Shown one piece after another: positions 3-16,766 of a stretch of DNA of 64,000 nt. Source of the DNA: an uncultured delta proteobacterium. Its GTDB lineage: Bacteria; Desulfobacterota; Zymogenia; Zymogenales; Zymogenaceae. The translations under genes and the position numbers were made by a program. The stretch lies in the NCBI GenBank assembly GCA_963735595.1, contig CAVTLK010000005.1, forward strand, positions 736,001 to 800,000, read 5' to 3'. Each line of letters starts with the position of its first letter. The stretch's first letter is position 1. The notes beneath the pieces are model-generated. The model saw nothing but the letters and a program-made list of their open reading frames with translations, did not search any database and was not told the origin of the DNA.

Positions 3-1433
3 ATTACCATCTCGGTATGCGTAATCGCCATAGTCTCTGCGGCAGCCGGTATTTCTCCCGTTTACGCCTGGACCGAGCAGGGCTATCTTAAGGGTACGGG
101 GGATTCGTCTTCCTTCACGATTACAAGCCCCGGTCCAACGACCGATTTCACGGTTTTCTACCCGAAGGGATCGGTTGATTTCTGGGTCAGTACTGTTGAT
201 CAGTCGGGTACCGTCAGCAGATACGACCTGGACAATTGGGACTCGATTCGGTTAACCGGCGCGGGTCTCTTCACGGTTACCGTCTATTCGAGGAGCGGTG
301 CGGGCAACTGGACCGTCGAGTTAGATCTTGCTACCTCCCCGCCGGTGTCCTCACCTACCGACGCCGTTCCTGTGCCACCTTCCACCCCGCTTTCCAGCAA
401 TCCTTCGCCCAAATCCGGTGAGGTTACCATCAACGGCAGGCTTGCGGGACCGGGGGATACCCATGTCTTTCGGATCCCGACCGAATCGAGCTATGTCGAA
501 GTGGCTTTCTATTATCCGAAAGAGACCATGTCTCTCTCGGTCAGGGTGGTGGCCGATGATAAACGGACGGTGCTTGGTCAGTATGACCTTGATAAAGGTG
601 AAATAATCGAGCTCTATGGCGGGGGCAATTTCTATCTAACCGTCTACTCCACGAGGGGTTCGGGAGGATTTATGGCGAGGTTCAATCCTGCGGGGTCTCC
701 TATCCCCCAAACCTATATTATTGCCGAGGGCGATCTTAAAGGAGGAACTGATAAACAAGAGTTTCCATTTGATGCTAAGACCGATGGGATCAGCATTTAT
801 TTCGACAGCCCGGCAAGAAGTGCGGATATCTGGGTAAAAGTAATTGCTGAAGATGGGAAGAGGATTCTGGGTGATTTCGATCTGAAGAACGAAAAGATCA
901 TTGACCTGAACAAGAAAGGAAAATATCTGATAACCGTCTACTCGCGGAGTGGTGCCGGTTCGTTCACCGCTTTCTATTTCGGCGGCCCGCCAGCCGAGAC
1001 CGTAGCACTCGGCACAAGCCCGTCCGAAGGAGAAAGCCCGGCGGTGCCCCTGGCGCCGAAGTTCCCACCCTTCCCTGACAAAGCAAAGCTTCCTTACGGT
1101 ACGAGTCTTGAAACGGGTTATCTTTCCGGTCCCGGCGAATTCAGAACGTTCATTATCAACGCTAAAATCGATTATGTTGAAGTTACCTTTAGCTATCCGA
1201 AGGGGACGGCTGATTTTTGGGTCAGGGTCATTGGCGAAGACGGCATCGAGGTTTTAGGTGACTTCGACCTTGATAACGGAGAAATCATTCAGCTTATGGG
1301 TGCGGGGACTTTCTACCTGAAGGTCTATTCAAAGGAAGGTGCGGGCAATTGGAGCGCCGTCTACCGTGAGGGAACCGGTGATCCCTATAGTGCTCCTAAC
1401 GGGATTTCCAACCGCCCCCGGTATAGTTACTAA
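3..1433 (+). CDS. Secreted protein with four tandem ~90-aa beta-rich domains (PPC-like) and Pro/Ser-rich linkers; 5' end outside the window
   Basis: The frame of ORF 345..1433 is open back to position 3 (ITISVCVIAIVSAAAGISPVYA-WTEQGYLKG..., signal-peptide-like). The motif G.L.G.GD..F.I...YPKG..DFWV...DLD....L.G.G.F...VYS..G.G recurs four times. Confidence 0.75.
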   Translation: MTISVCVIAIVSAAAGISPVYAWTEQGYLKGTGDSSSFTITSPGPTTDFTVFYPKGSVDFWVSTVDQSGTVSRYDLDNWDSIRLTGAGLFTVTVYSRSGAGNWTVELDLATSPPVSSPTDAVPVPPSTPLSSNPSPKSGEVTINGRLAGPGDTHVFRIPTESSYVEVAFYYPKETMSLSVRVVADDKRTVLGQYDLDKGEIIELYGGGNFYLTVYSTRGSGGFMARFNPAGSPIPQTYIIAEGDLKGGTDKQEFPFDAKTDGISIYFDSPARSADIWVKVIAEDGKRILGDFDLKNEKIIDLNKKGKYLITVYSRSGAGSFTAFYFGGPPAETVALGTSPSEGESPAVPLAPKFPPFPDKAKLPYGTSLETGYLSGPGEFRTFIINAKIDYVEVTFSYPKGTADFWVRVIGEDGIEVLGDFDLDNGEIIQLMGAGTFYLKVYSKEGAGNWSAVYREGTGDPYSAPNGISNRPRYSY

Positions 1434-1570
1434 ACATATCGATAGCTTTTCATCCCGAACTTTATGCAATCGTTGCTATATCACCCCCTAAGCTGGTTTC
1501 TTGTGCTGGTCGTTAAATTTCGCTGGGCAGGGGCGGGCCTGCCTGTCGAATGCCCTACGTTACGGTGAAA

Positions 1571-1710
1571 GTGATAAGAGTAGCGGGCGGCTGGAGGAGA
1601 TAGTAGATCTCCCTCAAAATAGGAACACACAATAACAACTGAGTTTATTTCCAGGACGATAAGAATGATCTAACGGCATTGTATAGTCGTTGGTAGAGCT
1701 GCTTATTATT
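1571..1710 (+). ncRNA. Candidate structured ncRNA or leader, family unassigned
   Basis: Closing stem tgataa..agtagc (1572-1584) / gctgcttatta (1698-1708); internal hairpins ggagat/atctcc and ctaacggc/gtcgttgg; immediately followed by an intrinsic terminator. Confidence 0.3.
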
Positions 1711-1711
1711 T

Positions 1712-1743
1712 GGGCGGAGGAAATACTTACTCCGCCCCTTTTT
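1712..1743 (+). terminator. Rho-independent terminator
   Basis: gggcggag-N10-ctccgccc followed by ctttttt-like T run. Confidence 0.75.
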
Positions 1744-2006
1744 ATGTTTCTTCCGGCCACACCCTCCCTTTTTGTCGATATTCGCAATTCATATTATTCA
1801 TCTCAACATGCTTCGCGTGACATAATCATTACCAGATATGAAGGGCAGTCGGCCCAAGATTACGTGCACCTCTCCTGATTTCCGCAGATACGTGAAGGAA
1901 AAGAGGGGATGGGCGTTGGAGGTCACGATAATCGTGGGTTATAAAGCCTGGGAGAAGGGGATTATTTCCCTTCTCCCGGGCCAATAGAAATGAGGAGGAG
2001 GGGCCC

Positions 2007-2348
2007 ATGCCGGCGTTACTTGATCGATCCATGATTGATATCGCATCCCATATCATTGATTTTCTTGGAGATAACATGGTATTTCAGCGACATACCGAAA
2101 GTGCATGGGAAGAATTAGGGCCGGCCGTTAAAGTATACCTACAGCCTCGGGACTCCTTATATCAAAGGTCTTTTCGGGGGAATGAAAACTCAATTGATTT
2201 TACCGGATTTGCGGCGGTAGCTGCTGATATTCGAAAAGGTGATCGAATAACAATCAACGATGAGTACTTTATTGTTGACCTCCTTGAGAATCGGGACACG
2301 CACCTTGAATTCCGCCTCAGGCAAACCGATGAAATCCGGGACACATAA
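2007..2348 (+). CDS. Phage head-closure/head-tail adaptor-like protein
   Basis: 113 aa with strong RBS (gaggaggag); C-terminal 'DIRKGDRITINDEYFIVD...HLEFRL' pattern typical of head-closure beta-barrels; first gene of the virion module. Confidence 0.6.
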   Translation: MPALLDRSMIDIASHIIDFLGDNMVFQRHTESAWEELGPAVKVYLQPRDSLYQRSFRGNENSIDFTGFAAVAADIRKGDRITINDEYFIVDLLENRDTHLEFRLRQTDEIRDT

Positions 2349-2386
2349 TCGACCTTAAGGTATGATGTTTATGTGGGGTTCCAGAA

Positions 2387-2836
2387 ATGCTGGTTTTTGG
2401 AAGCGAAATCCAGGAGCTGATATACGGAATATTGACCGGAGACGCTGTCCTCTTAACGTATCTGGGAGGGGACGAGATCGATAGACGGATTAGTCTCTCG
2501 TTGAGTGATTCAAACGTGCGGAAAATAAGCACGACTAAACCGGCTTATATCGTGGTAGAGACGATGCCTGCCCCCGCGCCGGTCCTCCTTGGTTCCGCAA
2601 TTGAAGAAAGGACGGAGCGGTATTGCCTGCACATATTCACCAAGCCCGAGGCCCGGGATCTGAGGGCGGCAATTGAGGGTAGGCTTCGAGGGCTGTTACA
2701 TAGGAAGAGCTTCCTTACGGCCAGGCTTATTGTTTATAACGTCTTCGAGGGTGTAAGAGAGGGTGTGATTACCGGGGCAGGCCTCTTTGACTATAGGTAT
2801 GGAATATCTTTTCAGTTCTTGCCGAAGGGCGATTAA
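2387..2836 (+). CDS. Phage tail terminator/completion protein-like
   Basis: 149 aa 'IQELIYGILTGDAVL...PAYIVVE...YCLHIF...AAIEGRLRGLLH' pattern; directly upstream of the tail tube gene. Confidence 0.6.
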   Translation: MLVFGSEIQELIYGILTGDAVLLTYLGGDEIDRRISLSLSDSNVRKISTTKPAYIVVETMPAPAPVLLGSAIEERTERYCLHIFTKPEARDLRAAIEGRLRGLLHRKSFLTARLIVYNVFEGVREGVITGAGLFDYRYGISFQFLPKGD

Positions 2837-2860
2837 GGAATATGAAAAAGGAATAACCGT

Positions 2861-3628
2861 ATGGGAACGGAAAAACTCGATCGGTCCGCAGTAGGTACAA
2901 TTGAAATCAACGGCGGTTCCGGTTGGCAAGTCCTTGGGATCATCAGAGAAGAAACCGTACGCGTTAACGGGGAAGAGATCACCCATTTTGACGCTTCTGA
3001 ACATCCGCGAGGTGTTGATAAAACGGTCTTTGGTAACGTTGATGTGGAAATCGAGTTCACGTGGGAGGAGATCGCTGATATCAGCTTATGGATTATAGTA
3101 TTACACGGCGGGAGTCTAACTGCAACGACAGCTGGTATTCAAACGGTAGTGAATGAAGACTTGGTAATGATGGGGATAGACTGGATTACGCTTGCTCATG
3201 CAGCCGATTTTGCCTTTGATAGCTCAGTGAACGTTAGTAACCGGGAGGGTAGCGTTACTTATATCGAGGGGGAGGATTACTACCTGGACCGTAAAGGCGG
3301 GCATCTTAAACGGATCTCAAGTGGGTTAATCGGTGAGGGCCAGACGGTAGGTGTTGATTATACGTATAAAACCTATTCCGGCAAGTGCTTCAGGATCTTC
3401 GAAAATCCAGCGCCTACCGTTTCTACCTTTCGTCTCACTAAGCACTTGCTTAACGGAGATAATCTCCGGATAACCCATAGCAGGGTCAACTTCTCTTCTA
3501 CGACCGAACTCCCTCTGAAACCCGGGGAAGGTGGTTCGTGGGCGGGTGTGACAAGTAGAATCAGATTCCTAAAAGATATTGGTGGAGTTTACGGCGCATA
3601 CGGGCGTTGGGAAATCTACACGCCATAG
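2861..3628 (+). CDS. Siphovirus-type major tail (tube) protein
   Basis: 255 aa; N-terminal GW..LG hairpin and the insertion 'TYIEGEDYYLDRKGG.L...G.IGEGQTVGVDYTY' seen in tail tubes; synteny. Confidence 0.7.
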   Translation: MGTEKLDRSAVGTIEINGGSGWQVLGIIREETVRVNGEEITHFDASEHPRGVDKTVFGNVDVEIEFTWEEIADISLWIIVLHGGSLTATTAGIQTVVNEDLVMMGIDWITLAHAADFAFDSSVNVSNREGSVTYIEGEDYYLDRKGGHLKRISSGLIGEGQTVGVDYTYKTYSGKCFRIFENPAPTVSTFRLTKHLLNGDNLRITHSRVNFSSTTELPLKPGEGGSWAGVTSRIRFLKDIGGVYGAYGRWEIYTP

Positions 3629-3778
3629 CATATCCATTTTTCTAATTCATAGATTAAACTGCTATTAGCCTGCTATGTCATACTCTTATAAAAATAAGGA
3701 CATAGAGTCCAGGTATCACATGTGCAATGTGAACGTATTGATGACTTGCTACGATATCTGGGTGAGGAAGGAAGGTGA

Positions 3779-4171
3779 GTGGTGAGCTGTATTATTGGCG
3801 CAATAACTCTTGATAGTACCCCTCTTTGGGTTGACAGGAACCGACATAACGACTTAAGCGCTGAAACTGCTATAGCAATTGATGGTGCTGAAATTGTCCA
3901 ATCTCATAGCCGGGGAGAACATTACCCCATCACGCTTCAGTCTACCAAAGAGACGGGCTGGCTCAAGGGATCGACCGTGACATCTTTGAGGGCGTTATCT
4001 GCCGTTGCAAACGCCTACTATACACTGACGCTGAATTCAGGTTCATATACTGTACGTTTCAGGAATGAACAATCTGGCGGGGCGATACAGGTTGAAACGT
4101 TATTCCCGCATTCGAATCCGGGAGATGCGGATTGGTGGATCGGCACCATTTACCTAATGCGTACTGGATAG
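3779..4171 (+). CDS. Virion structural protein (distal-tail-like)
   Basis: 130 aa 'ITLD...LWVD...AIDGAEIVQ...YPITL...GWL...YTVRFR...W.GTIYLM', a pattern of the small protein that normally follows the tape measure gene in some siphophages. Confidence 0.6.
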   Translation: MVSCIIGAITLDSTPLWVDRNRHNDLSAETAIAIDGAEIVQSHSRGEHYPITLQSTKETGWLKGSTVTSLRALSAVANAYYTLTLNSGSYTVRFRNEQSGGAIQVETLFPHSNPGDADWWIGTIYLMRTG

Positions 4172-4180
4172 GAGATATAG

Positions 4181-5650
4181 ATGAGTGCAGTCACAGGTCT
4201 TTTCAAATCATCGGTCGTGTCGGATGAAACCACTAACGGCGGGGTGCTTTCGAATAATGCCGTCGTGGACAACACCGCTGAAAACGTATTCCCACACGTC
4301 AACGAAGCGGACCGAACGGCGGGAATTACGAGATACCGGGACGTCTTGGTCAAGAAACTTTCCGGGACCCTGACGAACGCCAAGTTTATGATCGACCGCC
4401 TTTCGACTGCCGGAGATTATATCGTTATCACCCGTGCCGGTGATAGCCACACACAACTGACGGCTGATGACCTCGGATGGAATACCACCGTTACGTGGAC
4501 GCTTGCAACCCGCACAATCGTCTTGGGCGCGGCACGGGCGGAAGTTACACCGGGGACGCTCCTATTATTCACGACCGCTGCCGGGGCCTTCCGGGGCATT
4601 GCAACAGTGGCGACATGGACAAATACCACTACCATGACAATCTCCACTATGATACGCGGTTCCAATCCGGCTACTACAGACATAGTCTATACCTGGTACA
4701 CCGGATCGGGCGACCTCCATACGGCTCTCACCGGGGGGGTAGATACAACGGTTGTCGCAGATTTTGAGGTTACGGCCTGTATCCTGCCGGGTCAGTATGT
4801 TGCCCTCATAGACTGGGACGCCGCAACTCCACCGACGATTGAATACTGCCTTGTTACAGTAACTGCATGGGCCGGGACGGAGGGGACGCTCACCATCTCG
4901 CCCGCCTGCGTCTCAAATCACGCGGTCAAGACTCAGGGGACGGTAACCGGGACCGAAGATGAGAACTTCGACCTCGACGGGCTCACGCTGGTAATCAAGG
5001 TCAACGGGGGGGATTCCCAGACCGTTACATTCTCATCTGACGGAATGACGGCGGCCCAGGTTGCCACGGCGATAAATAGCGGAACGACCGGATGTACGGC
5101 GGCGGCCTCCGGCACAAAGGTCGAGATCGTGACCGACGACTACTATGCCGAAAACTCGATACAGGTACTTTCCGATTCAACAGGAGATACGGAGCTTGGC
5201 CTTGATAACTCCGTACATAACGGGACGACGGGTACGGTAGTTGCCGGGGTGTTGGAACTCGGGACTATCGCGGCCTCTCATAGTACCCCGGTAAAGACCT
5301 CGCCACTCGGGACGTTCACGGACAATATCGTCAACTACGACCTCGGGGCCTGCTACGATACCATTACCGTGACCTTCTCATCGGCAACGGCCTTCACGGT
5401 CGCGGGGGCGGCAGAGGGGTCTTTGGGAGCCGGGACGATAAGCACCGTCTTTAAACCGGCGCACTGGGGCTCGTACTACTTTGAGATCCCGACATCATGC
5501 TGGGGCGGGACGTGGGCCAACGGGGATACGCTGGTATTCATCACCTATCCCTCGGCAGAGGCGATCTGGATGAAAGAGGTCGTGCCAGCTTCTACGGCGG
5601 CTTACTCGGGGAATAAGTGTAGCTTCACTCTCGATGCGGAAACGGCCTGA
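4181..5650 (+). CDS. Virion tail-tip structural protein
   Basis: 489 aa Thr/Gly-rich; N-terminus 'LFKS..VSD...NGG....VD....NVFPHV...DR.AG.TRYR' and C-terminal 'AIWMKEVVPA.T.A..N' typical of phage tail-tip proteins. Confidence 0.6.
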   Translation: MSAVTGLFKSSVVSDETTNGGVLSNNAVVDNTAENVFPHVNEADRTAGITRYRDVLVKKLSGTLTNAKFMIDRLSTAGDYIVITRAGDSHTQLTADDLGWNTTVTWTLATRTIVLGAARAEVTPGTLLLFTTAAGAFRGIATVATWTNTTTMTISTMIRGSNPATTDIVYTWYTGSGDLHTALTGGVDTTVVADFEVTACILPGQYVALIDWDAATPPTIEYCLVTVTAWAGTEGTLTISPACVSNHAVKTQGTVTGTEDENFDLDGLTLVIKVNGGDSQTVTFSSDGMTAAQVATAINSGTTGCTAAASGTKVEIVTDDYYAENSIQVLSDSTGDTELGLDNSVHNGTTGTVVAGVLELGTIAASHSTPVKTSPLGTFTDNIVNYDLGACYDTITVTFSSATAFTVAGAAEGSLGAGTISTVFKPAHWGSYYFEIPTSCWGGTWANGDTLVFITYPSAEAIWMKEVVPASTAAYSGNKCSFTLDAETA

Positions 5651-6152
5651 TGCCCGACGACGTAATCTACATGACCCCACTCCCCGAGAATGAGGGGGTG
5701 ATACTACATGGAACCACTCGCGGCGCTTACGGGTGAGATCTATATGGACAAGAAAATCATATTAACCGGAGGCGGCACCGGTGACGAGGAAGCAGATATC
5801 ACATGGACGTATATGGGGGAGGGTGCTTTTTGGGGCGGTCTTTTCGCATCACCCTTATGGAATTCTACTCCTGGCGATTTTTCAAGTGCTACGTCATCGC
5901 ATCCAGTCGTGTATTATTCGGGATGGAAATATATAAGATTCATAGCATATACCGGGACTCTATGAATAACCACTGGCAAATAGTTCTGGAGATTCGGTTT
6001 ATACGTTTTCATTCAAGAGCAGTAACGATTTCGGTTCAGTGGGCGACACTATATCTCTTGGGCCATCCGGCGCATTTCTGTTGGGATATTATGACCCGAG
6101 TACTGCCGGGTGTTCGGGAGGGCTCGGATACAGATGGTATTTAGGTAAATAA
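5650..6152 (+). CDS. Small virion-associated protein, frameshifted
   Basis: ATG overlaps the upstream stop; MPDDVIYMTPLPENEGVI.. joins ORF 5708 via a 1-nt indel (gtgatactacatg); a further frame ends ...GLGYRWYLGK* with a TAATG overlap into 6152. Confidence 0.45.
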
Positions 6153-9100
6153 TGGGCTTTTTTGTAAAAGAGTATTTCAATCTACCTGACGGATATTTTC
6201 AGGAAAGTATCAATACTGCAGTGGCGGGCAGCGGCTCCGTCTATCAGGACGGGACATACGGATATATCCAGACATCGGCGAATGCCGATGCGGCCATTAT
6301 CGTATCTGACGAATCCCTTTCCGCTGCCGAGTTTTTCAATAAGGCCATTACGTTTTCACTATCCTATCAACTGACCTCACTGCCGGACGGAGACTCCCTG
6401 AGTCTGATGCAAGATAGTAAACAGCGCTACACAAGCCGGAGATCGATACGCTCGGTAATTACCAGTTACTATTGCAGACTGACCCGGACGGGAGCGACGT
6501 ATTACGAACGGTGGTACTACTACGACGCATCGGCGACCCTGCGCACGTATGACGGCGCGCACGAATGCGTGGACGACGACGACGACCAATAACGTCAGAA
6601 CGATTAACCTTTCGACAACTTATACTCTGACAATAACATGGAATCCCGTAACGCCGCACGTTTACGTTTCGCACATGACGGCGCAGAATCGGCGGTATCA
6701 AATGCTATAAGATTCGAGAATAACCCGTGGTGGTGGTTTATCGGTGATGATGAGACGGCAAACAATTATGGGGTATTGCGATTAGATCATATCTACGTCA
6801 CGGATATCAGCACCCGCAACCGCTTCACCATCCGCAACAGCCTCACGAAAGCCTACAAGAAATCACCGATCCTGACGATCATCAATAACCTGACGACGCG
6901 GCACAGGGATTCGTTCACCCTCAAGAACTCTATCCTCGACCATGAGCCATACCGTAATAACTTCACCGCCCTCAATAACATCGGCGTCGAGGGGCAACTT
7001 ATCTATCTCGACGGATCGTGGCAGACGGTAAACATCAAGGGTAAGCAGCTTTCCAATCGGGCCACGGTGGCGATCGACGGCGCGGACGTATCCAGCAAGG
7101 TCACGGATTGGTCTATCGACTATGACGACCAGACGCTATGTAAGACCGTTTCCGTAACCGTGAAAGATCGGGCATACGCGCAGTCTATCCAGACCAGGAA
7201 GTATTCAGATTCAGACTTCGATACCGCCCGGATAGAGATCATAGGATGTAGACGGGTATTCCCTCGGTGAGTTCCTGATCGAGAACAAATCCGAGAACGC
7301 CGCGCACAAATCTTATTCCTGCACCCTCTCGGGCAGGTCCATGACTGCCTTACTGGATATCCCGTTTTCCGAAAGACTCCAGACGCTTTATGACGAGGCC
7401 ACGAGCAAATCGGCGGTAGTCGGCGACCTCGCCGGGATAAGAGCCTGACCGTACAGTGGGGGATCCCCGACTCCGTACTTCCTATCGGGGCGCTGGCCTG
7501 TGACGACGAACCCCCTATTTCTGTCATCAAGAAGATCGTCGAGGCCGGGGGGGGACTGGTCTATACCGACCGATCCGATAACCTCGTATGCGCCTACAAG
7601 GACTATGAGACTGCCGGAAAGTCCCCGGTGATGTCCATTTCCTCCGGCGATATCGTGTCCATCTCTCAATCCCGGATGGTCCCGAACGGAGAAAATCAGG
7701 TCACGGTAGAGGGGTTCATAGACACCTCGATTACCGACGGGTGGGCACAGATCAGCATAGAAGCATCGAAGTACAAACTCAAATCCAACGGCTTTGACTC
7801 CGGTACAGTAACCGCGACCTGCCGGAACGAGGACCAGACGATACCCGATGTGGAGTTGCAGACCGACGAAGAACAGACCCCCGCGACCAACGACCACTAC
7901 GAAATATCCGTTACTTACATGATTGATAAGGACGCGGGCGGTGTCGTCTCGATCGTCAAGCAGTCAGACTCGTCCCTTGTCGCCGGTCCCTATGAAGTCA
8001 TCGACGCCCGTACGATCCGCGTTGGAACCGCGATGGCTGACACGACCTACCTTGTCACCTACTACGGGGGCAACACCGTCACCTTTTCGGTAGACGCTAA
8101 CGCCGATATCTCACCTACTGAAGTATTGGTCAAGAACGGGCGGGCCGAGGCGACGCTGCGGGCCTCATCGGGGGGAGGGGGGTACGCCGTTGTTTCCGCT
8201 GATTACCTCGACGCCCAGACCGCCCAGCTCACCGTCACGATAGCAGATCCACGGGTGGGGCAGGTGGACGTGAGCGCCGATCCTTCCTCTATATCAATCG
8301 GCGAGACCTCGACGGTCAAGATACAGGTGCTTGATTCCGACGGATACCCCGCCGACAACGGGTTGTATGTCGATATCTCGGTAATCGGACACGGACAGCT
8401 CATAGACTACGCCGGGGTGGTCACTCCGACAACGGCAACCACCACGACCGAATCCATCACCGACGGGGGGATTGAAAACGGGCAGTATAACCCGATCTAT
8501 CCCGTATCGGAAATCGAGGTATCCACGCAATACCAGATCAGCGCCTTGACCTCGATCTATCGGTATGAGAATGGCCTGCCGTATACTGATGTCAACTATG
8601 CGTCGGGGGCGACGGTGGACGGGAATACGATCACACTGGCAACGCCCCTGCCGAGTTCGGTTACGCCGATTCAGGTAACCTATGACTGTACCGGGATAGC
8701 GACATCGACGTTTTCCTATCCATCCTACCGGGAGATCCCGAAAACCTCCATCCAAAACCTCATCGTTGCGCAATGCGGGGGTGAGGTCGGGTCTACGTTC
8801 ATCACCATCGAAAGCCCGTATGGTGGGACGGGTGGGGGCGGTGGAGCGGGCGGTGGCGGGCCAATCAGTCCTCATTGGGTATATATAGATATCAAGGCAT
8901 CATCCGGCGGCAAATTCATACGGTAATGTCATACGGAACGGCAAAAGTGGTTTGGGCCCATCGACTAGAAGGCTCATCATATCGAATGACGCAAGCCAGG
9001 CTTCGATACGAGCGAGGCGGTGTGGGAAGACAAGACGGGCATGGGAAGCTTCCAGTGGTATGTTAACGAGGAACGTGCCAGTAGATATAGCATCTTGACA

Positions 9101-9505
9101 TTGAAGGTACATGGACTTGCGCGAGCTTCCGACAACAGGTTCCGACACTACGAACACGGACAACACAGGGAAGACCTACGTCTCGGGGTCGAGGATAGTC
9201 AAGAACGGGAACGACCATAGTGTTGTGATAGAACACGCCTACGTACTCTATCGCATGGGGAGAAGAGTACCGAGACGGGATACACCAATGTCAACGGCAT
9301 CCTGACGTTCTCAAAGGGACAGCCGGGCGTAACGGGGGTCGTGACACTGACTCATCCAGAATACGAAACTACCACGGCCTCGATCACCATACCGGGGAGC
9401 ATTACCAATTCAAATGTGACAAACGATGATTCCGATACAGGCGTCACGAAATGGTCCCCGATACAGGTAAAGGTCAAGATACCCTACTACTGGGAGAGTG
9501 TATGA
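6152..9505 (+). CDS. Large tail-tip hub/host-binding protein with Ig-like (Big-type) domains; split by several frameshifts
   Basis: ORFs 6152, 6638 and 7628 are linked by plausible alternative frames (TNAWTTTTTNNVRTINLSTTY; DVDGYSLGEFLIEN; QWGIPDSVLP...PISVIKKIVEAGGGLVYTDR hub motif). Ig-like 'VSADPSSISIGETSTVKIQVLDSDGYP'. Last frame ends KIPYYWESV* with an ATGA overlap at 9502. Confidence 0.55.
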
Positions 9506-9825
9506 TAAGCGTATCCTGCCACTACGGGGACGGTTCAAGACCGCTGGACGCGGTGACGGACAGCCTCATTATCACCGAGGCTGACGCGGTCAACCGGGGA
9601 TATGCGGAGCTCAACAAGGCATGGAAGATCGTCGATTCCTACACCGTCTCGATGCCGTATCCGGCAAACGGGTATCTCCTCGAAGTGGGAAAGCATATCA
9701 AGGTCACGTGTCCAGAAGTGGGACTTGTCAACCAGGTCTTATACATCCAGGGCGTATCGCTTTCCGGGAATGATAAAGGCACGAAGATCACGCTGACCCT
9801 CGAAAAGTACGAGGCGTTTGAATGA
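9502..9825 (+). CDS. Small baseplate-hub-like virion protein
   Basis: 107 aa 'AVTDSLIITEADAVNRGYAEL...LLEVGKHIKV...IQGVSL...ITLTLEKY'; translationally coupled on both sides. Confidence 0.5.
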   Translation: MISVSCHYGDGSRPLDAVTDSLIITEADAVNRGYAELNKAWKIVDSYTVSMPYPANGYLLEVGKHIKVTCPEVGLVNQVLYIQGVSLSGNDKGTKITLTLEKYEAFE

Positions 9826-10094
9826 GCCTGAAAACATACATTGCCCGAGCAGCGCGGGCCGCCCAGGTCAATAACTATGCCACGGGCAAGGTCATCTCGG
9901 TAGACAGTGATGGGCGGCATTTGGTGGAACTCACCAGCGGGCGACGGATCATGGTCTACTCGGCATCGGGTGTCAACTATACCACTGGTGACTATGTATC
10001 AATCAGGTATCTCTCCGGGGATAAGAGACAGGCGGAGATCGCGGGGAAAACTACAAAGATCGGAGCAACGACAACAAGGATGGTGTACCGATGA
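9822..10094 (+). CDS. OB-fold spike/tip-like phage protein
   Basis: 90 aa 'TGKVISVD.DG.HLVEL..G...V......GDYVSI' OB-fold pattern; ATGA coupling. Confidence 0.5.
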   Translation: MSLKTYIARAARAAQVNNYATGKVISVDSDGRHLVELTSGRRIMVYSASGVNYTTGDYVSIRYLSGDKRQAEIAGKTTKIGATTTRMVYR

Positions 10095-10306
10095 CAGACG
10101 GAAACGGGATAACGGCGGCAGAATTTAGGGGCAAGATGCTTGAACGGACAGAGGACATACTGCGGCGCATCACCGACCTCGAAAAAAAGGTTGATTGTCA
10201 CGTCGTCGATCTCGCCATGCTCAAAGTCAAGGCGGGGATGTGGGGATTTCTGGCCGGGGCAGTCCCCTCTCTTGCGGCCCTGCTCGTAATGATATTCAAG
10301 GATTAG
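10091..10306 (+). CDS. Holin-like protein (coiled coil plus C-terminal TM)
   Basis: 71 aa; heptad region then GMWGFLAGAVPSLAALLVMIF; immediately upstream of the endolysin. Confidence 0.55.
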   Translation: MTDGNGITAAEFRGKMLERTEDILRRITDLEKKVDCHVVDLAMLKVKAGMWGFLAGAVPSLAALLVMIFKD

Positions 10307-10308
10307 CC

Positions 10309-10755
10309 ATGAAGATGCGAGATGAAGATTGGCAGCTGGTTAAATATTTCGAGGCACAGGAATTTTCCCCGAGTCCCCACATGATGGAGCAGTCGATTGT
10401 TTTTCTGATCGATACGATACGCGACCTCTATTGCTCACCAATCAATATCACGTCGGCGTGGAGTCCGGGGACCGGGCACTCGGCAACATCACAACACTAC
10501 GTCGGCAAAGCCGTTGACTTCTGGATCGAAGGGATACCATTCAAAGATGCCGTGGGCCTGATGGAGGATTTTTTGAGCGCACCGCCTCGCGGGATAGGTG
10601 AATGGGATAAGGTAGGGCTCGGGATATACCCTCATTGGCTGCACCCGGGATTCCATCTTGATACCCGGGGAGCGATGGCCCGCTGGGGCGCAGTAACACG
10701 GATGGGAAAGCAGGTTTATGTATCATGGGATAACGCAAACAAGGCGGTAGTATGA
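10309..10755 (+). CDS. Peptidase M15A-type Zn endolysin
   Basis: Motifs SQHYVGKAVDF and GLGIY...FHLDTRG; start taken at MKMRDEDW. Confidence 0.8.
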   Translation: MKMRDEDWQLVKYFEAQEFSPSPHMMEQSIVFLIDTIRDLYCSPINITSAWSPGTGHSATSQHYVGKAVDFWIEGIPFKDAVGLMEDFLSAPPRGIGEWDKVGLGIYPHWLHPGFHLDTRGAMARWGAVTRMGKQVYVSWDNANKAVV

Positions 10756-10946
10756 AGATTTGGGAGGCTATCGGAGGGCGCAAGTTCCTGGCACTCACGC
10801 TGGCGTGTATAGTGTACGTCTGGACGGGTCGATTTGATTTCAACCTCGCGCTCATCTTTGCCGCGTATATGGGTGCAAACGTTTTGACTAAGTTAGTTAA
10901 TGGGAAGAAGGAGAAAGAGGTTGAGGTTAAATATGATACTCACTAA
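10752..10946 (+). CDS. Holin (2 TM, charged C-terminal tail)
   Basis: 64 aa 'GGRKFLALTLA...IFAAYMGANVLTK..KKEKEVE'. Confidence 0.65.
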   Translation: MKIWEAIGGRKFLALTLACIVYVWTGRFDFNLALIFAAYMGANVLTKLVNGKKEKEVEVKYDTH

Positions 10947-11166
10947 AAAGAGGATCCTCTTTGTTAGCATTATCATAGCCCTTTGGGCGCTAATAATGCT
11001 CTGGGGCATTCACAGGTACCGGGAAGACGCACTGACGGAAAAGCAGGTTTCCACCCGGAGCCTTCAGGCTCAGGAACGGGTAACACGAGAGTATATTCCC
11101 ACGAAATTGAAGGAAAAGGACTCTGATGAACTAACAAGGATAGGGGTAAACCTATGGGGAGAATAA
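10933..11166 (+). CDS. i-spanin-like type II membrane protein
   Basis: 77 aa; basic N-terminus, single TM, helical periplasmic tail; within the lysis cassette. Confidence 0.5.
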   Translation: MILTKKRILFVSIIIALWALIMLWGIHRYREDALTEKQVSTRSLQAQERVTREYIPTKLKEKDSDELTRIGVNLWGE

Positions 11167-11585
11167 ACAAACTTACTTATTCTATGTCTGGAATGGCTGT
11201 AATATTGAGTAGCCTGATCTGCCTGTTAGTGATAGCAGGTGGATGTTCCACCGCGTCATGGATAATTCATCACAACGGCTCAGGCGATGATCTTCTTATT
11301 AACGAGGCCGACGTGGATGCAATGATTACTGAATTGTCGCTGGTACAGCCAGTAGACTCGGAAACCATACTCCATAACGAAACCACGGATCGATATGAGC
11401 TCACGCCGGATGCCTACAGGAAAGCGATAAGGGACGGGATTATCAGGAGGATTCAGGATAGTAAGATCAGCGCATTTCTTGAGAGCTACCGTCGCGAGAG
11501 TTTTGCCGACGCCCTAAGGAAAGATATGGGCACGGTCGGGACTATTATCCTGTTCCTCGGGATCCTCGGCGGCCTGTTCTATTAA
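11154..11585 (+). CDS. Spanin-like lipoprotein with C-terminal TM
   Basis: Hydrophobic stretch ending LVIAGG-C (lipobox-like) and C-terminal TVGTIILFLGILGGLFY. Confidence 0.5.
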   Translation: MGRINKLTYSMSGMAVILSSLICLLVIAGGCSTASWIIHHNGSGDDLLINEADVDAMITELSLVQPVDSETILHNETTDRYELTPDAYRKAIRDGIIRRIQDSKISAFLESYRRESFADALRKDMGTVGTIILFLGILGGLFY

Positions 11586-11611
11586 AAAGGCGCGGTAACA
11601 ACCGCGCCGTT
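11584..11611. terminator. Terminator hairpin between convergent genes
   Basis: aaaaa-ggcgcggt-aaca-accgcgcc; T-tract on the minus strand. Confidence 0.75.
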
Positions 11612-11642
11612 GAATTATTGTATAGTGGCCGTCAAAAGGTAA

Positions 11643-12366
11643 TCAATCACTTACCATGAGCGTCAGCTTTTCGATGATCGGTGGGTCCTCCGTATCGATT
11701 ACCTGAACCATCTCTTTATACATTCGCCTCTTCATCTCGGCAAATATACCGCGTTTCTTCTGATAGGTTCCCGCTAAGGCCATCGCCTCGGCAATCAGCG
11801 TCTCTTGGTTTTCACAGGCCTTGACAATGACATGATGCGCCTCGAGCTCCGCCGCGCCATAGCGCTTGCCGGAAAGGAGCATTTCGTTGAATTTATACTC
11901 AGGGATGGCCTTCCTGCTGAAGGCGACCATCCCCGGCAAAAACGGGATGCCGATATCGATCTCGGGAAAAAAGAAAAAGCCTCTATCGGCGCGCATGAAG
12001 CGAAAATCGCAGGCGCATGACAGGATCGCCCCGTTGGCTACCGCATGGCCGTTGATTGCAGCGATCACCGGCATCGGGTAGGTTAAGAGCCTCTTGAATA
12101 CCCCGTTGATCCCGTACAGGAACTCCTTGATCTGTTTCGTCTCGTTTTTTCCCATTCGCTCCGTCAACCAGGTAAGGTCGATGCCCTGAGACCAGTTCTT
12201 TGGATCACTGCTGGTGATAACGACCGACGAAAGCTCCTTATCTTTTTCGATGGCGTCCAACGCGGTGGACATATCGGCAACGAAGACGGCGTTGTGGCGG
12301 TTTTCCCCGTTAGTCATCGTGACGACGGCGACGGTCCCTTGTTTCTTCCATTCTACGACAGACATC
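11643..12366 (-). CDS. Enoyl-CoA hydratase/isomerase (crotonase) family
   Basis: WSQGIDL, PVIAAINGHAVANG, CDFRFM, PEIDIG motifs; start MSVVEW after RBS gaggagga. Confidence 0.9.
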
Positions 12367-14741: not shown

Positions 14742-16766
14742 CTACCCGATCCTCCGCCTGCCGAGCTTGCGCCACAGGGCGGCGGCAAACAGAAAGAATA
14801 AAAGGGAGAGCAGAAAGGCCTCGGCGAAAACCACAATGGTTCCCCAGCGGGGATCGTCAATAAGATACTTGGTGCGGTATCGTTCGGGAGTGAAGATACC
14901 GATCGTTGCGGAGAGGGCACGGACGTAGTCCGTGAGAAAGGAGGGCTGCCGCATGTCGCCGGGCCGGATCGTGTCGTAACGGATGACGTCTGAGGCCGGA
15001 TTCACCGGCAGTGGCGTGAGACCTACCGTCTCCTCCACCGAGATGGGGGTAAGCTCCGGGGGTATCTGGACAATCCCTACACGGAGGTTTAACAGCCCCG
15101 AGATGGCAACCACGAGGGCAAGCCACCCCAGGGTGTATACTGGCCGTTCCCCGAAGAGCGAAACCAGCCGGTAGAGCCATAGCCCGATGCGCACCAAAGG
15201 TGTTTCGAAGTTTTCCCTGCGCCGCATCTCCATCTGCCCGGCGAAGAAGTCGCCCGCTTCGTGGTACCGGTAGTTGCGCGTATAATTCTCCATGAGTTGG
15301 TTGTACAGCCGATAAACCTCCCAGTGGTTCTCCTCCTTGGGAGCGGCCCAGATCCTTACGCGTTTCAGGAGCGTGAGCCGGGCGGTGCGTCCTGGCGTGC
15401 CGAGGCGGTCCAGGAAACGGGTCCATCGGGCCACGGTAAGCAACAGGCCTCCGATCCCGAGGAATCGGAAGGGCCGTTGACTATACCGGAAAATCCTCCC
15501 CCGTTCCTGGAAAAGCTCGTCGTAGACCTTGACCCTCCCGGAGAAGAGTGACGAGTTATATCGCCTGCCGCACCACGAGATTCGGACAAAATTAATCCGC
15601 GTAACATCGGTAGAGAGGAAACGCGCACACGAGAGGTCAACGACGGCGAACGTAACGCGATCAGGATACTCGAAAGAGATATCCTGAAAATCCACGGGAG
15701 TGCCGTGATAAAAGGTCCTGCCGGAAAAGAGTATCCTTCCGCCCCCGGAGAACGTCGAGCCGGAGAAGGAGACGCCTGCAGGGCAATGGAACTGTGCGTC
15801 GGAAAAGTCTGCACCGCTGCCTCCCGAGAACCGCGCACGGGAAAAATTAACCGGGCCGTCGCCGATAAATTTCGCGTTAACGAAATTCGCTTTGCTCTTG
15901 CCGGTTAGCTGTGCCAGCGAGAAATTGGCGCCTCCGTTACAGGTAAACTCCGCCTTGTTGAAGTTGGCTCCGCCCCGGCCGGAGAAGTTGGTGGTTGAAA
16001 AATTCGCCTGTCCTTTTCCGAAGAATCTCGTGCTGGAAAAATTGGCCCCATCCCCCCCCGAAAACTGGATCAGGGAAAAGTTCGTACCCCCGTCTTTCGC
16101 GAAGCTCGCCCCGGCGAAGTTAGCCACCTTGCCGGTAAACTCAGCGAAGTGGAAATCCGCCGCCCCCTCACCGGAAAACTCGGCTAACTTGAAGTCCACG
16201 CCGCCGTCCGCCGCGAACTTAGCCCAGGTAAAATCGACAGATCCTCCCGAAAAGACCGTCCGGGAAAAATTTGTTGTGCTGTTCCCGGAAAACTTCGCCA
16301 TCCTGAAATTGGTTCCGCCCGCCCCCTCGAAGCGCGCCCCGCCGAAAGAGACCGTATTGTCACCCAGGAAGGAAGCTTCGATAAAGTTCGCTCCGGATTC
16401 TCCTCCAAAGGTTGCCCCGGAAAGATCGACCGGGCAATTGAATACCGCATCCGAGAAGACGGCATCGGTGAAGGCGAGAGAACCAGCCTCGTGTTTTAGC
16501 CGCGAAAAATCAAACAATCTTGGAAAGACGAAACCGCAGAAGAGATGATGTCCGGATTGGTAGAGCTTCATGAATTCCAGACGGAAGCGTTCGGCATCCT
16601 TATCTTCTCGCGTGTCATGAAAGATGCAGAGCCGCTTTGCCGCCGGGCCGGATTGCCTCTTGGCCGGGTGGGGACACGAGTAGGAAACGTGGGAATTATC
16701 CTTAAGGTTGAGATAGGTCGAAGAATAGTCACACATTGATCGTTCCTCGAAGCTGGTCGTGATCAT
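14742..16766 (-). CDS. Pentapeptide-like repeat protein with C-terminal membrane (channel-like) domain
   Basis: Many ~13-aa repeats (A/V)(N/D)FxxAxFxGxGG; N-terminal C..C..CIFH motif; 'YNQLMENY...AGDFFAGQMEMRR...SLFGERP' followed by TM helices. Confidence 0.75.
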   Translation of the reverse strand: MITTSFEERSMCDYSSTYLNLKDNSHVSYSCPHPAKRQSGPAAKRLCIFHDTREDKDAERFRLEFMKLYQSGHHLFCGFVFPRLFDFSRLKHEAGSLAFTDAVFSDAVFNCPVDLSGATFGGESGANFIEASFLGDNTVSFGGARFEGAGGTNFRMAKFSGNSTTNFSRTVFSGGSVDFTWAKFAADGGVDFKLAEFSGEGAADFHFAEFTGKVANFAGASFAKDGGTNFSLIQFSGGDGANFSSTRFFGKGQANFSTTNFSGRGGANFNKAEFTCNGGANFSLAQLTGKSKANFVNAKFIGDGPVNFSRARFSGGSGADFSDAQFHCPAGVSFSGSTFSGGGRILFSGRTFYHGTPVDFQDISFEYPDRVTFAVVDLSCARFLSTDVTRINFVRISWCGRRYNSSLFSGRVKVYDELFQERGRIFRYSQRPFRFLGIGGLLLTVARWTRFLDRLGTPGRTARLTLLKRVRIWAAPKEENHWEVYRLYNQLMENYTRNYRYHEAGDFFAGQMEMRRRENFETPLVRIGLWLYRLVSLFGERPVYTLGWLALVVAISGLLNLRVGIVQIPPELTPISVEETVGLTPLPVNPASDVIRYDTIRPGDMRQPSFLTDYVRALSATIGIFTPERYRTKYLIDDPRWGTIVVFAEAFLLSLLFFLFAAALWRKLGRRRIG

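Follow-up and report, generated by a model that had tools for sequence, protein, structure and literature searches.

A tail and lysis gene block near the start of the window

The DNA analysed here is a 64,000-nucleotide stretch (the window), C5:736001-800000 of genome G000 (3.63 Mb, 5 contigs, 93% complete), in which positions 2007-11585 hold a block of genes, all on the plus strand, with tail and lysis functions. An earlier reading, made from the window's sequence only (the sequence-only reading), had described this co-directional run, and matches to PHROGs, the Peptidase M15 match and a predicted terminator structure bear it out. The block belongs to an element whose modules each occur once, keep their positions among relatives, show purifying selection and stand behind one motif, with no linked integrase or conserved replication genes. 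Our preferred reading, to which we assign a probability of roughly 55%, is that the block represents the neck, tube, tip and lysis genes of a domesticated, split phage of Candidatus (Ca.) Zymogenaceae, which likely builds a particle resembling gene transfer agents (GTAs) that would carry host DNA and leave the cell by lysis. Comparisons were made with nine other genomes of the family, three from the same genus (G001-G003) and six others (G004-G009); L-numbers denote loci, stretches from these genomes or related contigs, and L200 encodes the same proteins as G008. As the gene caller missed some low-GC genes, six-frame searches were run as well.

The neck and tube genes are preceded by a promoter-like motif (1788-1826, plus strand) composed of a TTCATA direct repeat, 18 bp and a -10-like hexamer, which ranks first genome-wide. 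A hairpin of 16 pairs (1946-1981, plus strand, z -4.35) lies just before the ribosome-binding site and is also found in G001-G003. The long 5' leader as a whole (1827-2006) is conserved within the genus. Rfam gave no match in window positions 1400-12000. The first gene (2007-2348) encodes a 113-residue head-closure (stopper)-like protein, so named only from an Atlas lead (PF05354 cluster, 0.93) and its position. It is followed by the tail terminator (149 residues, 2387-2836), the AlphaFold2 (AF2) model of which has a predicted local distance difference test (pLDDT) score of 90; its top Foldseek matches were tail terminators, including that of RcGTA (6tba, TM score 0.65), with a monocin cap as the best structural match. 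The major tail (tube) protein comes next (255 residues, 2861-3628; phrog_807, E 3e-17). At 3629-3778 comes a 151-bp gap, the site of chaperone and tape-measure genes in related prophages; the motif recurs in it (3646-3684).

Beyond the gap, the tip genes begin with a protein of about 130 residues in the distal-tail position (3779-4171; phrog_4408, function unknown, E 1e-19), a homolog of which follows the tape measure in a G007 prophage. Next are a 489-residue tip protein with a variable central insert (4181-5650; phrog_6128) and a small hypervariable tip gene (5650-6144; 183 residues in G001) that is frameshifted in this assembly. The hub/tip gene (6152-9505, about 1090 codons; phrog_6079) has a conserved core and variable ends and lies in several frames here, the open reading frames (ORFs) at 6152, 6638, 7628, 9020, 9111 and 9341 being pieces of this single gene. 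It is followed by a protein of about 108 residues resembling a hub C terminus (9502-9825; phrog_177, baseplate hub, E 5e-6) and a 90-residue tip protein, putatively an OB fold, with a weak PHROGs match (9822-10094). The lysis genes encode a holin-like protein with one hydrophobic helix (10091-10306), a homolog of which is found in the G007 prophage, an M15 peptidase endolysin with intact histidine motifs (10309-10755; phrog_894, Peptidase M15), a second holin-like membrane protein (10752-10946; phrog_1322, E 0.002) and two spanin-like proteins (10933-11585) of 77 residues (N-terminal helix) and 143 residues (lipobox-like Cys and C-terminal helix), both conserved in relatives. Note that hydrophobic segments were the sole basis of the holin and spanin labels.

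The genes had been read as one transcription unit flanked by terminators. Co-direction stands, and the second promoter-like motif at 3646-3684 makes a single unit improbable. The terminators were not confirmed: the hairpin that separates the block from the convergent enoyl-CoA hydratase gene (11589-11608) is followed by a U-run only when read on the minus strand, and the one at the 5' end scores weakly (z -1.3). A scan of the sequence for sigma-70 promoters and terminators gave fewer sites than did shuffled sequence. On the other side of the block, a gene encoding a secreted repeat protein (plus strand, 1-1433, starting at the window edge, longest ORF 345-1433; 485 residues in G001) is kept between the head and tail units in G001-G003 and G006 and has paralogs on C2; it is probably a host insertion. 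A pentapeptide-repeat membrane protein encoded at 14742-16766 is conserved in the genus.

Head, switch and packaging units upstream of the window

The block had been considered head-less and devoid of integrase, repressor, terminase, portal, capsid and tape-measure genes. The absence of integrase and tape measure was upheld; capsid, terminase, portal and repressor genes all lie upstream on the same contig, and the head-less appearance arose because the window edge cut off the upstream units. Genes for scaffold-like, decoration-like and capsid proteins (Phage_capsid_4, E 5e-16) and a 68-residue protein, which from its position we take to be adaptor-like, lie at C5:732808-735644, 0.4-3.1 kb before the window. 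An XRE repressor gene and a divergent gene for an 84-residue helix-turn-helix (HTH) protein, HTH84, are found at C5:728812-729821 (6-7 kb before the window). The packaging unit (C5:710633-713897, 22-25 kb before the window) adjoins gltX and encodes a 76-residue HTH protein (HTH76) that is paralogous to HTH84 (41% identical), a TerS-like protein, TerL (E 4e-46), a 66-residue protein and an SPP1-like portal. The ATPase motifs of TerL are intact in seven of the seven genomes where they are assembled, and the nuclease residues in eight. The TerS-like protein consists of a disordered N-terminal part and a conserved part of about 50 residues; it has no HTH in six of six cases, and a separate HTH gene overlaps the start of its gene. 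A lambda-type portal (PF05136) and a GpA terminase (PF05876) were sought in five genomes and found in none.

No tyrosine integrase gene was found near the block, the four tyrosine-recombinase matches being confined to C1, C2 and C5:909 kb, and no resolvase-family gene was found in G000. A primase-helicase with iteron-like repeats (C4:294-297 kb) was rejected as a Bartonella-like run-off replication module, being patchy (two of nine relatives) with a motif score of 19.3, within the control range. That locus (L106, G000:C4:294481-296726) holds a putative zinc-finger primase piece, a putative AAA helicase and a putative HTH gene with the iteron-like repeats and is likely a satellite remnant. The 66-residue gene between TerL and portal (L045:16388-16588) is found in all eight carriers, and a gene that looks similar by eye lies among the early genes of the G007 prophage. 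Near the XRE locus G007 and G009 carry a gene for a 158-residue HExxH protein and a motif-led 108-residue gene (L174:7758-8783, L176:3138-4173). The HExxH protein is presumably ImmA/IrrE-like, and G000 has there instead a gene that we take to be of DUF262 type. In viral contigs, a search with the tube alignment gave 37 pattern matches, none of which was confirmed, and a single capsid query gave nothing.

A shared promoter-like motif precedes the dispersed units

Each of four units (packaging, head, neck and tip) has the motif in front of it. With a matrix of known sites, the module sites of G000 ranked 1st, 2nd, 3rd and 16th genome-wide; the reversed control peaked at 19.6, so that the third site, at 21.7, is marginal. 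A strict pattern gave 32 matches in 10 genomes versus one in the reversed control. Twenty of these are module promoters (a partly circular result), five lie after tetratricopeptide repeat (TPR) genes or before tape-measure-like genes, two precede the 108-residue gene near the XRE locus and five have no evident link. Two true prophages of the family (G007:C16 and G006:C18) gave no motif match above threshold. A copy of the motif usually precedes the tip genes, and a promoter-like site re-appears there in several lineages. The HTH proteins may be what binds the motif.

The element is family-wide, syntenic and under purifying selection

The capsid gene was found in eight of the nine other family genomes and in none of 31 genomes of other families, and the portal gene in eight of nine versus none of 291 other genomes of the phylum. 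Both HTH paralogs are present in eight of nine, the tube gene in seven of nine (one a prophage copy) and the tip-lysis unit in G000-G004 and G006-G008. Terminator, tube and spanin genes were not found in G009, which is 88% complete and in 550 contigs.

Each module is single copy. The packaging unit adjoins gltX in all six relatives where both are readable, the XRE-HTH84 pair adjoins the same LCP gene in all nine genomes carrying the pair, and the head unit adjoins a nitroreductase gene. The sequence-only reading had proposed looking for the same cassette between the same flanks in relatives; gene order and flanks proved constant within the genus. Outside it, units have moved apart or are split by host genes, the modules having been rearranged independently of one another, and in G004, G007 and G008 the tail unit has been relocated to a distance from the head unit. 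A 780-residue fibre-like gene is an extra member of the tip operon in G008 and L200 (L039:11409-13398; L200:17767-20109).

The dN/dS (nonsynonymous to synonymous substitution) ratios are rough, with many dS values above 1, and between G000 and G001 gave 0.04 for capsid, 0.11 for portal, 0.15 for TerL, 0.16 for tube, 0.17 for terminator and 0.16 for the M15 peptidase; as a group, TerL, neck, tube and tip genes fell at 0.14-0.17, and ten host control genes gave 0.03-0.19 in the same comparison. Overall, most genes lay at 0.04-0.25, not near 1, and capsid values were 0.03-0.04. In trees of proteins from the packaging, head and tail units the genus clades match those of gltX, with weak deeper forks. 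Between G000 and G003 the dS of tip and lysis genes (window 3779-11166) is 0.4-1.0 versus 0.1-0.3 for head and packaging genes, which suggests allele exchange.

These data bear on two other explanations. An ordinary cryptic prophage decaying by chance is highly improbable: the frameshifts in this assembly and the true family prophages with the same tip module would suit it, but the flanks are the same across four genera, the genes are single copy with host-like dN/dS and host-congruent trees, no integrase is nearby, and the dN/dS data already largely refute it. The proposal of a domesticated element rather than random decay is thus sustained by synteny, single copy, dN/dS, trees and the shared motif, and its split-GTA variant fits the same observations. 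The same proposal had also allowed for a head-less, tip-only adhesin or toxin particle or a bare lysis-release cassette. The tip's own motif site and hypervariable ends agree with this, as does the separation of tail and head units in three genomes; against it, head, adaptor-like, stopper-like, portal and terminase genes are present behind the same motif and are conserved equally or more strongly, with dN/dS values that are lower or equal. We regard it as very unlikely.

Observations that weigh against a working particle

Several results count against the preferred reading. The GTA-like particle, its expression and its packaging of DNA are predictions from genes, the portal match falls below the Pfam cut-off and the TerS-like gene has no family match that would identify it as TerS. 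The motif matrix was built from 13 sites that leave out G000 and G003 and include same-genus homologs, and the fourth G000 site (16.1, rank 16) is within control noise. Constraint is weaker on the 77-residue spanin (dN/dS 0.46) and the small tip gene (0.36). G005 (88% complete) lacks capsid, tube, portal and HTH genes; as the neighbour of the packaging unit, the gltX ortholog, is missing too and G005 carries a tape-measure-like/TPR pair with a weak motif, its packaging stretch may be unassembled. The hub and small tip genes are frameshifted in G000, G002 and G003, and in G000 and G003 the density of frameshifts in the hub is far higher than in host genes, which have 0-2 each. Finally, searches of G000-G003 and of the element in G006 gave no tape measure. 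The last two points require fuller treatment.

The retention of tip genes had been called clean, and in this assembly it is not. Frameshift-aware alignment gave nine inferred hub frameshifts in G000, 21 in G003 and five in G002, some of them perhaps artefacts at diverged ends. The hub gene is open (1078-1091 codons) in G001, G006, G007 and G008, and every gene is intact in G001. One explanation is that the tail is being lost in this genus, the tip genes decaying since loss of the tape measure and the product being DNA-filled or neck-stub heads that act as decoys or release DNA. The missing tape measure and the excess of hub shifts over host genes are in its favor, as are the higher ratios of the neck genes (dN/dS 0.25-0.37 between G000 and G003). 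However, the genes of G001 are intact, no hub change recurs at a given codon from one genome to another, the G000 and G003 copies are free of in-frame stops, the hub core has a dN/dS of 0.15-0.23 (0.15 for G000 versus G003) and the promoter-like site before the tip genes recurs in several lineages. Moreover, the essential gltX gene is itself in three frames in G000 (C5:709-710 kb); together with a frameshifted tyrosine recombinase gene (C2:414456-414930) this points to indel errors in the G000 assembly. Since the shifts are unshared and, in G000 and G003, free of stops, the core is constrained and gltX is split too, we read the hub frameshifts as probable consensus errors in a strain-variable region and consider ongoing loss of the tail unlikely. 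Among sequencing runs no RNA run was listed, and six DNA runs matched with small shares; the four checked were relatives' contigs and have no bearing on the frameshifts. An AF2 model of the 1091-residue hub, built from three sequences, had a pLDDT of 38, and its Foldseek matches were meaningless and discarded.

In prophage G007:C16, which has the same tip-lysis module, two chaperone-like genes and a 275-residue tape measure precede the distal-tail gene, and the tape measure of prophage G006:C18, also with this module, has about 900-1000 residues. In the element the corresponding tube-to-tip gap is 151 bp in G000, 148 in G003, 632 in G001, 12 in G002, 540 in G008 and 500 in G004, and in G006 and L202 host genes occupy it. 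The G000 gap holds neither tape measure nor chaperone, and no tape measure was found in the gaps of L199 and L200. Searches of G000 for an orphan tape measure with PF10145, TIGR02675 and the prophage protein were all negative, five tape measures and two chaperones gave a best E of 0.13 against its six frames, and profiles of the dispersed family described below gave a best E of 0.39; such negatives are to be read in light of genomes that are 89-93% complete and a protein that evolves fast. A composition ranking of G000 proteins returned only recognisable host proteins. The search for orphan modules that the sequence-only reading had proposed thus recovered capsid and terminase and no tape measure. 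An ORF of 82-114 residues behind the tube gene in other genera (L039:4449-4793; L199:2403-2651; G004:C287) has a conserved C-terminal stretch; in G004, G008 and L199 it matched neither phage chaperones nor anything in G000 and was rejected as a candidate.

The arrangement suggests that tape-measure and chaperone genes were lost from between tube and tip and that a fresh promoter took their place. Two known systems speak against a tail built in this way: the lambda tail initiator complex includes the tape measure, as outlined in part of PMC8718954, and RcGTA has a tape measure that probably holds DNA in the head, according to passages of PMC7296036. A working tail is unexplained for the element of G000-G003 and G006, because no tape measure was found although both of these systems use one. 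The tube protein of SPP1 self-polymerises (also from PMC8718954, in part).

A dispersed tape-measure-like family in sister genera

Through the shared motif we found a family of helical proteins of 240-590 residues whose N-terminal helix is hydrophobic and whose two termini carry conserved motifs. Their genes, carried by three other genera, are dispersed, multicopy and fast-diverging and mostly lie behind the motif and a TPR gene, with two matches in G004, four in G007, six in G008, five in G009 and one in G005 (examples in these genomes include L169:1302-2294, L170:9961-10890, L171:8804-9838, L173:2359-3087 and L195:661-2394). In G004, one copy opens the tip operon. Of ten members scanned, a 577-residue protein matched tape-measure families significantly (to E 4e-14), two gave weak matches (E 0.03 and 0.09) and seven none; the family had only six database matches. 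The searches gave no member in G000, G003 or G006, and what matched weakly in G001 and G002 (E 0.2) is an unrelated membrane protein. The proteins may act as rulers or as cargo.

The cargo alternative would make the product a headed killing or protein-delivery particle, in the manner of PBSX, in which the tape-measure-like proteins are interchangeable cargo of the tail lumen that damages the membranes of neighbouring cells, the TPR proteins provide immunity or act as chaperones and packed DNA is incidental. The existence of such a multicopy, fast-diverging family behind motif and TPR gene, one member of which resembles tape measures, argues for this, as do the copy directly before the G004 tip operon and the allele swapping suggested by the elevated tip and lysis dS. 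It must be set against the lack of family members in G000, G003 and G006, where all modules are nevertheless under selection, the lack of any toxin domain seen and the single significant tape-measure match. We judge a killing particle to be the less probable outcome, though one to be taken seriously.

Proposed function of the element

Under the GTA-like reading, relief of repression by the XRE protein would allow HTH84 and HTH76 to activate the promoters that contain the motif. The putative TerS, which appears to have no DNA-binding head, together with the intact TerL, would then direct headful filling of a small capsid through the SPP1-type portal, and holin, M15 endolysin and spanins would release the particles. 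As no tape measure was found, the tail in this genus would be a short stub or of uncontrolled length; in other genera tape-measure-like proteins would be supplied from the dispersed genes. A more specific version, which we offer tentatively, is an independently evolved, family-wide transfer particle in which the tape measure has become detached from the tail operon: this genome would build a ruler-less stub tail from long-tail parts, and sister lineages would draw on a dispersed, co-regulated library of interchangeable, TPR-paired tape-measure-like proteins that set tail length or entry specificity or act as effectors.

Comparison with known systems

PBSX of Bacillus subtilis is a fixed defective phage that has an Xre repressor, takes host DNA into its particles and leaves the cell by lysis; it is encoded in one cluster and has a contractile tail and a tape measure. 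Unlike PBSX, the element is split, shows no sheath gene and in this genus has no tape measure. The GTA Dd1 of Desulfovibrio desulfuricans is short-tailed. It comes from the same phylum as the element and its putative TerS lacks a DNA-binding domain, as described in part of PMC11841831, a trait that the TerS-like protein of the element may share; the portal of the element is found in none of the 291 genomes of that phylum outside the family.

A multi-locus layout and a TerS without DNA-binding domain are given as GTA traits in sections of PMC11841831, where GTAs are said to have few known independent origins, to be hard to spot and to resemble scattered prophage debris. Here we find phage-derived head, portal, terminase, tail and lysis genes with no linked integrase or replication genes, inherited vertically at several loci under purifying selection. 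As described in the same source, RcGTA also has split structural, packaging and lysis genes and no replication genes, its TerS has no DNA-binding domain, as may be the case for the TerS-like protein here, and it shares with the element a siphophage-type stopper, terminator, tube and distal tail (PMC7296036, in part), its terminator resembling our model (TM 0.65). The ancestry appears to differ. The capsid profile searched against the PDB led to capsids with a Mu gpT domain (four sequences at E<=1, none named RcGTA), the portal is SPP1-like, unlike that of RcGTA, and the switch is a phage-type XRE/HTH pair, also unlike RcGTA. The tail of RcGTA contains a trimeric tape measure and five tube hexamers, whereas the tape measure between tube and distal-tail genes was not found here. 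By these sequence comparisons the element is not a member of the RcGTA family.

No published description of the element was found, by title or abstract start, in searches on GTAs in Zymogenia and Desulfobacterota, and in the main text of the Zymogenia class description (bioRxiv 10.1101/2021.03.22.436540) the word "phage" occurs 0 times. The element is a candidate for a family-wide GTA in Desulfobacterota with testable markers, namely the capsid, the portal and a promoter motif by which more members can be found.

The temperate siphophages of the family, G007:C16 and G006:C18, share the order of tip and lysis genes (the G007 prophage proteins are 30-52% identical) and differ in carrying their own terminase, head genes and tape measure and in giving no motif match. 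An active temperate prophage is contiguous, has integrase and replication genes and is patchy among kin, a description that does not apply to the element. Like the block, F-type tailocins and monocins combine a non-contractile tube with a tip and a lysis cassette. Tailocins retain a tape measure and are without head or packaging genes. The element is the reverse, having head and packaging genes and neither tape measure nor chaperones in the cluster, and judging from this gene content it is not an F-type tailocin. What appears to be new is a tail for which no tape measure was found, in a split, GTA-like element. This bears on the rule of phage assembly that a non-contractile tail builds on a tape measure: tube, terminator and hub genes kept under selection without one, together with a multicopy library in sister genera, make that rule testable.

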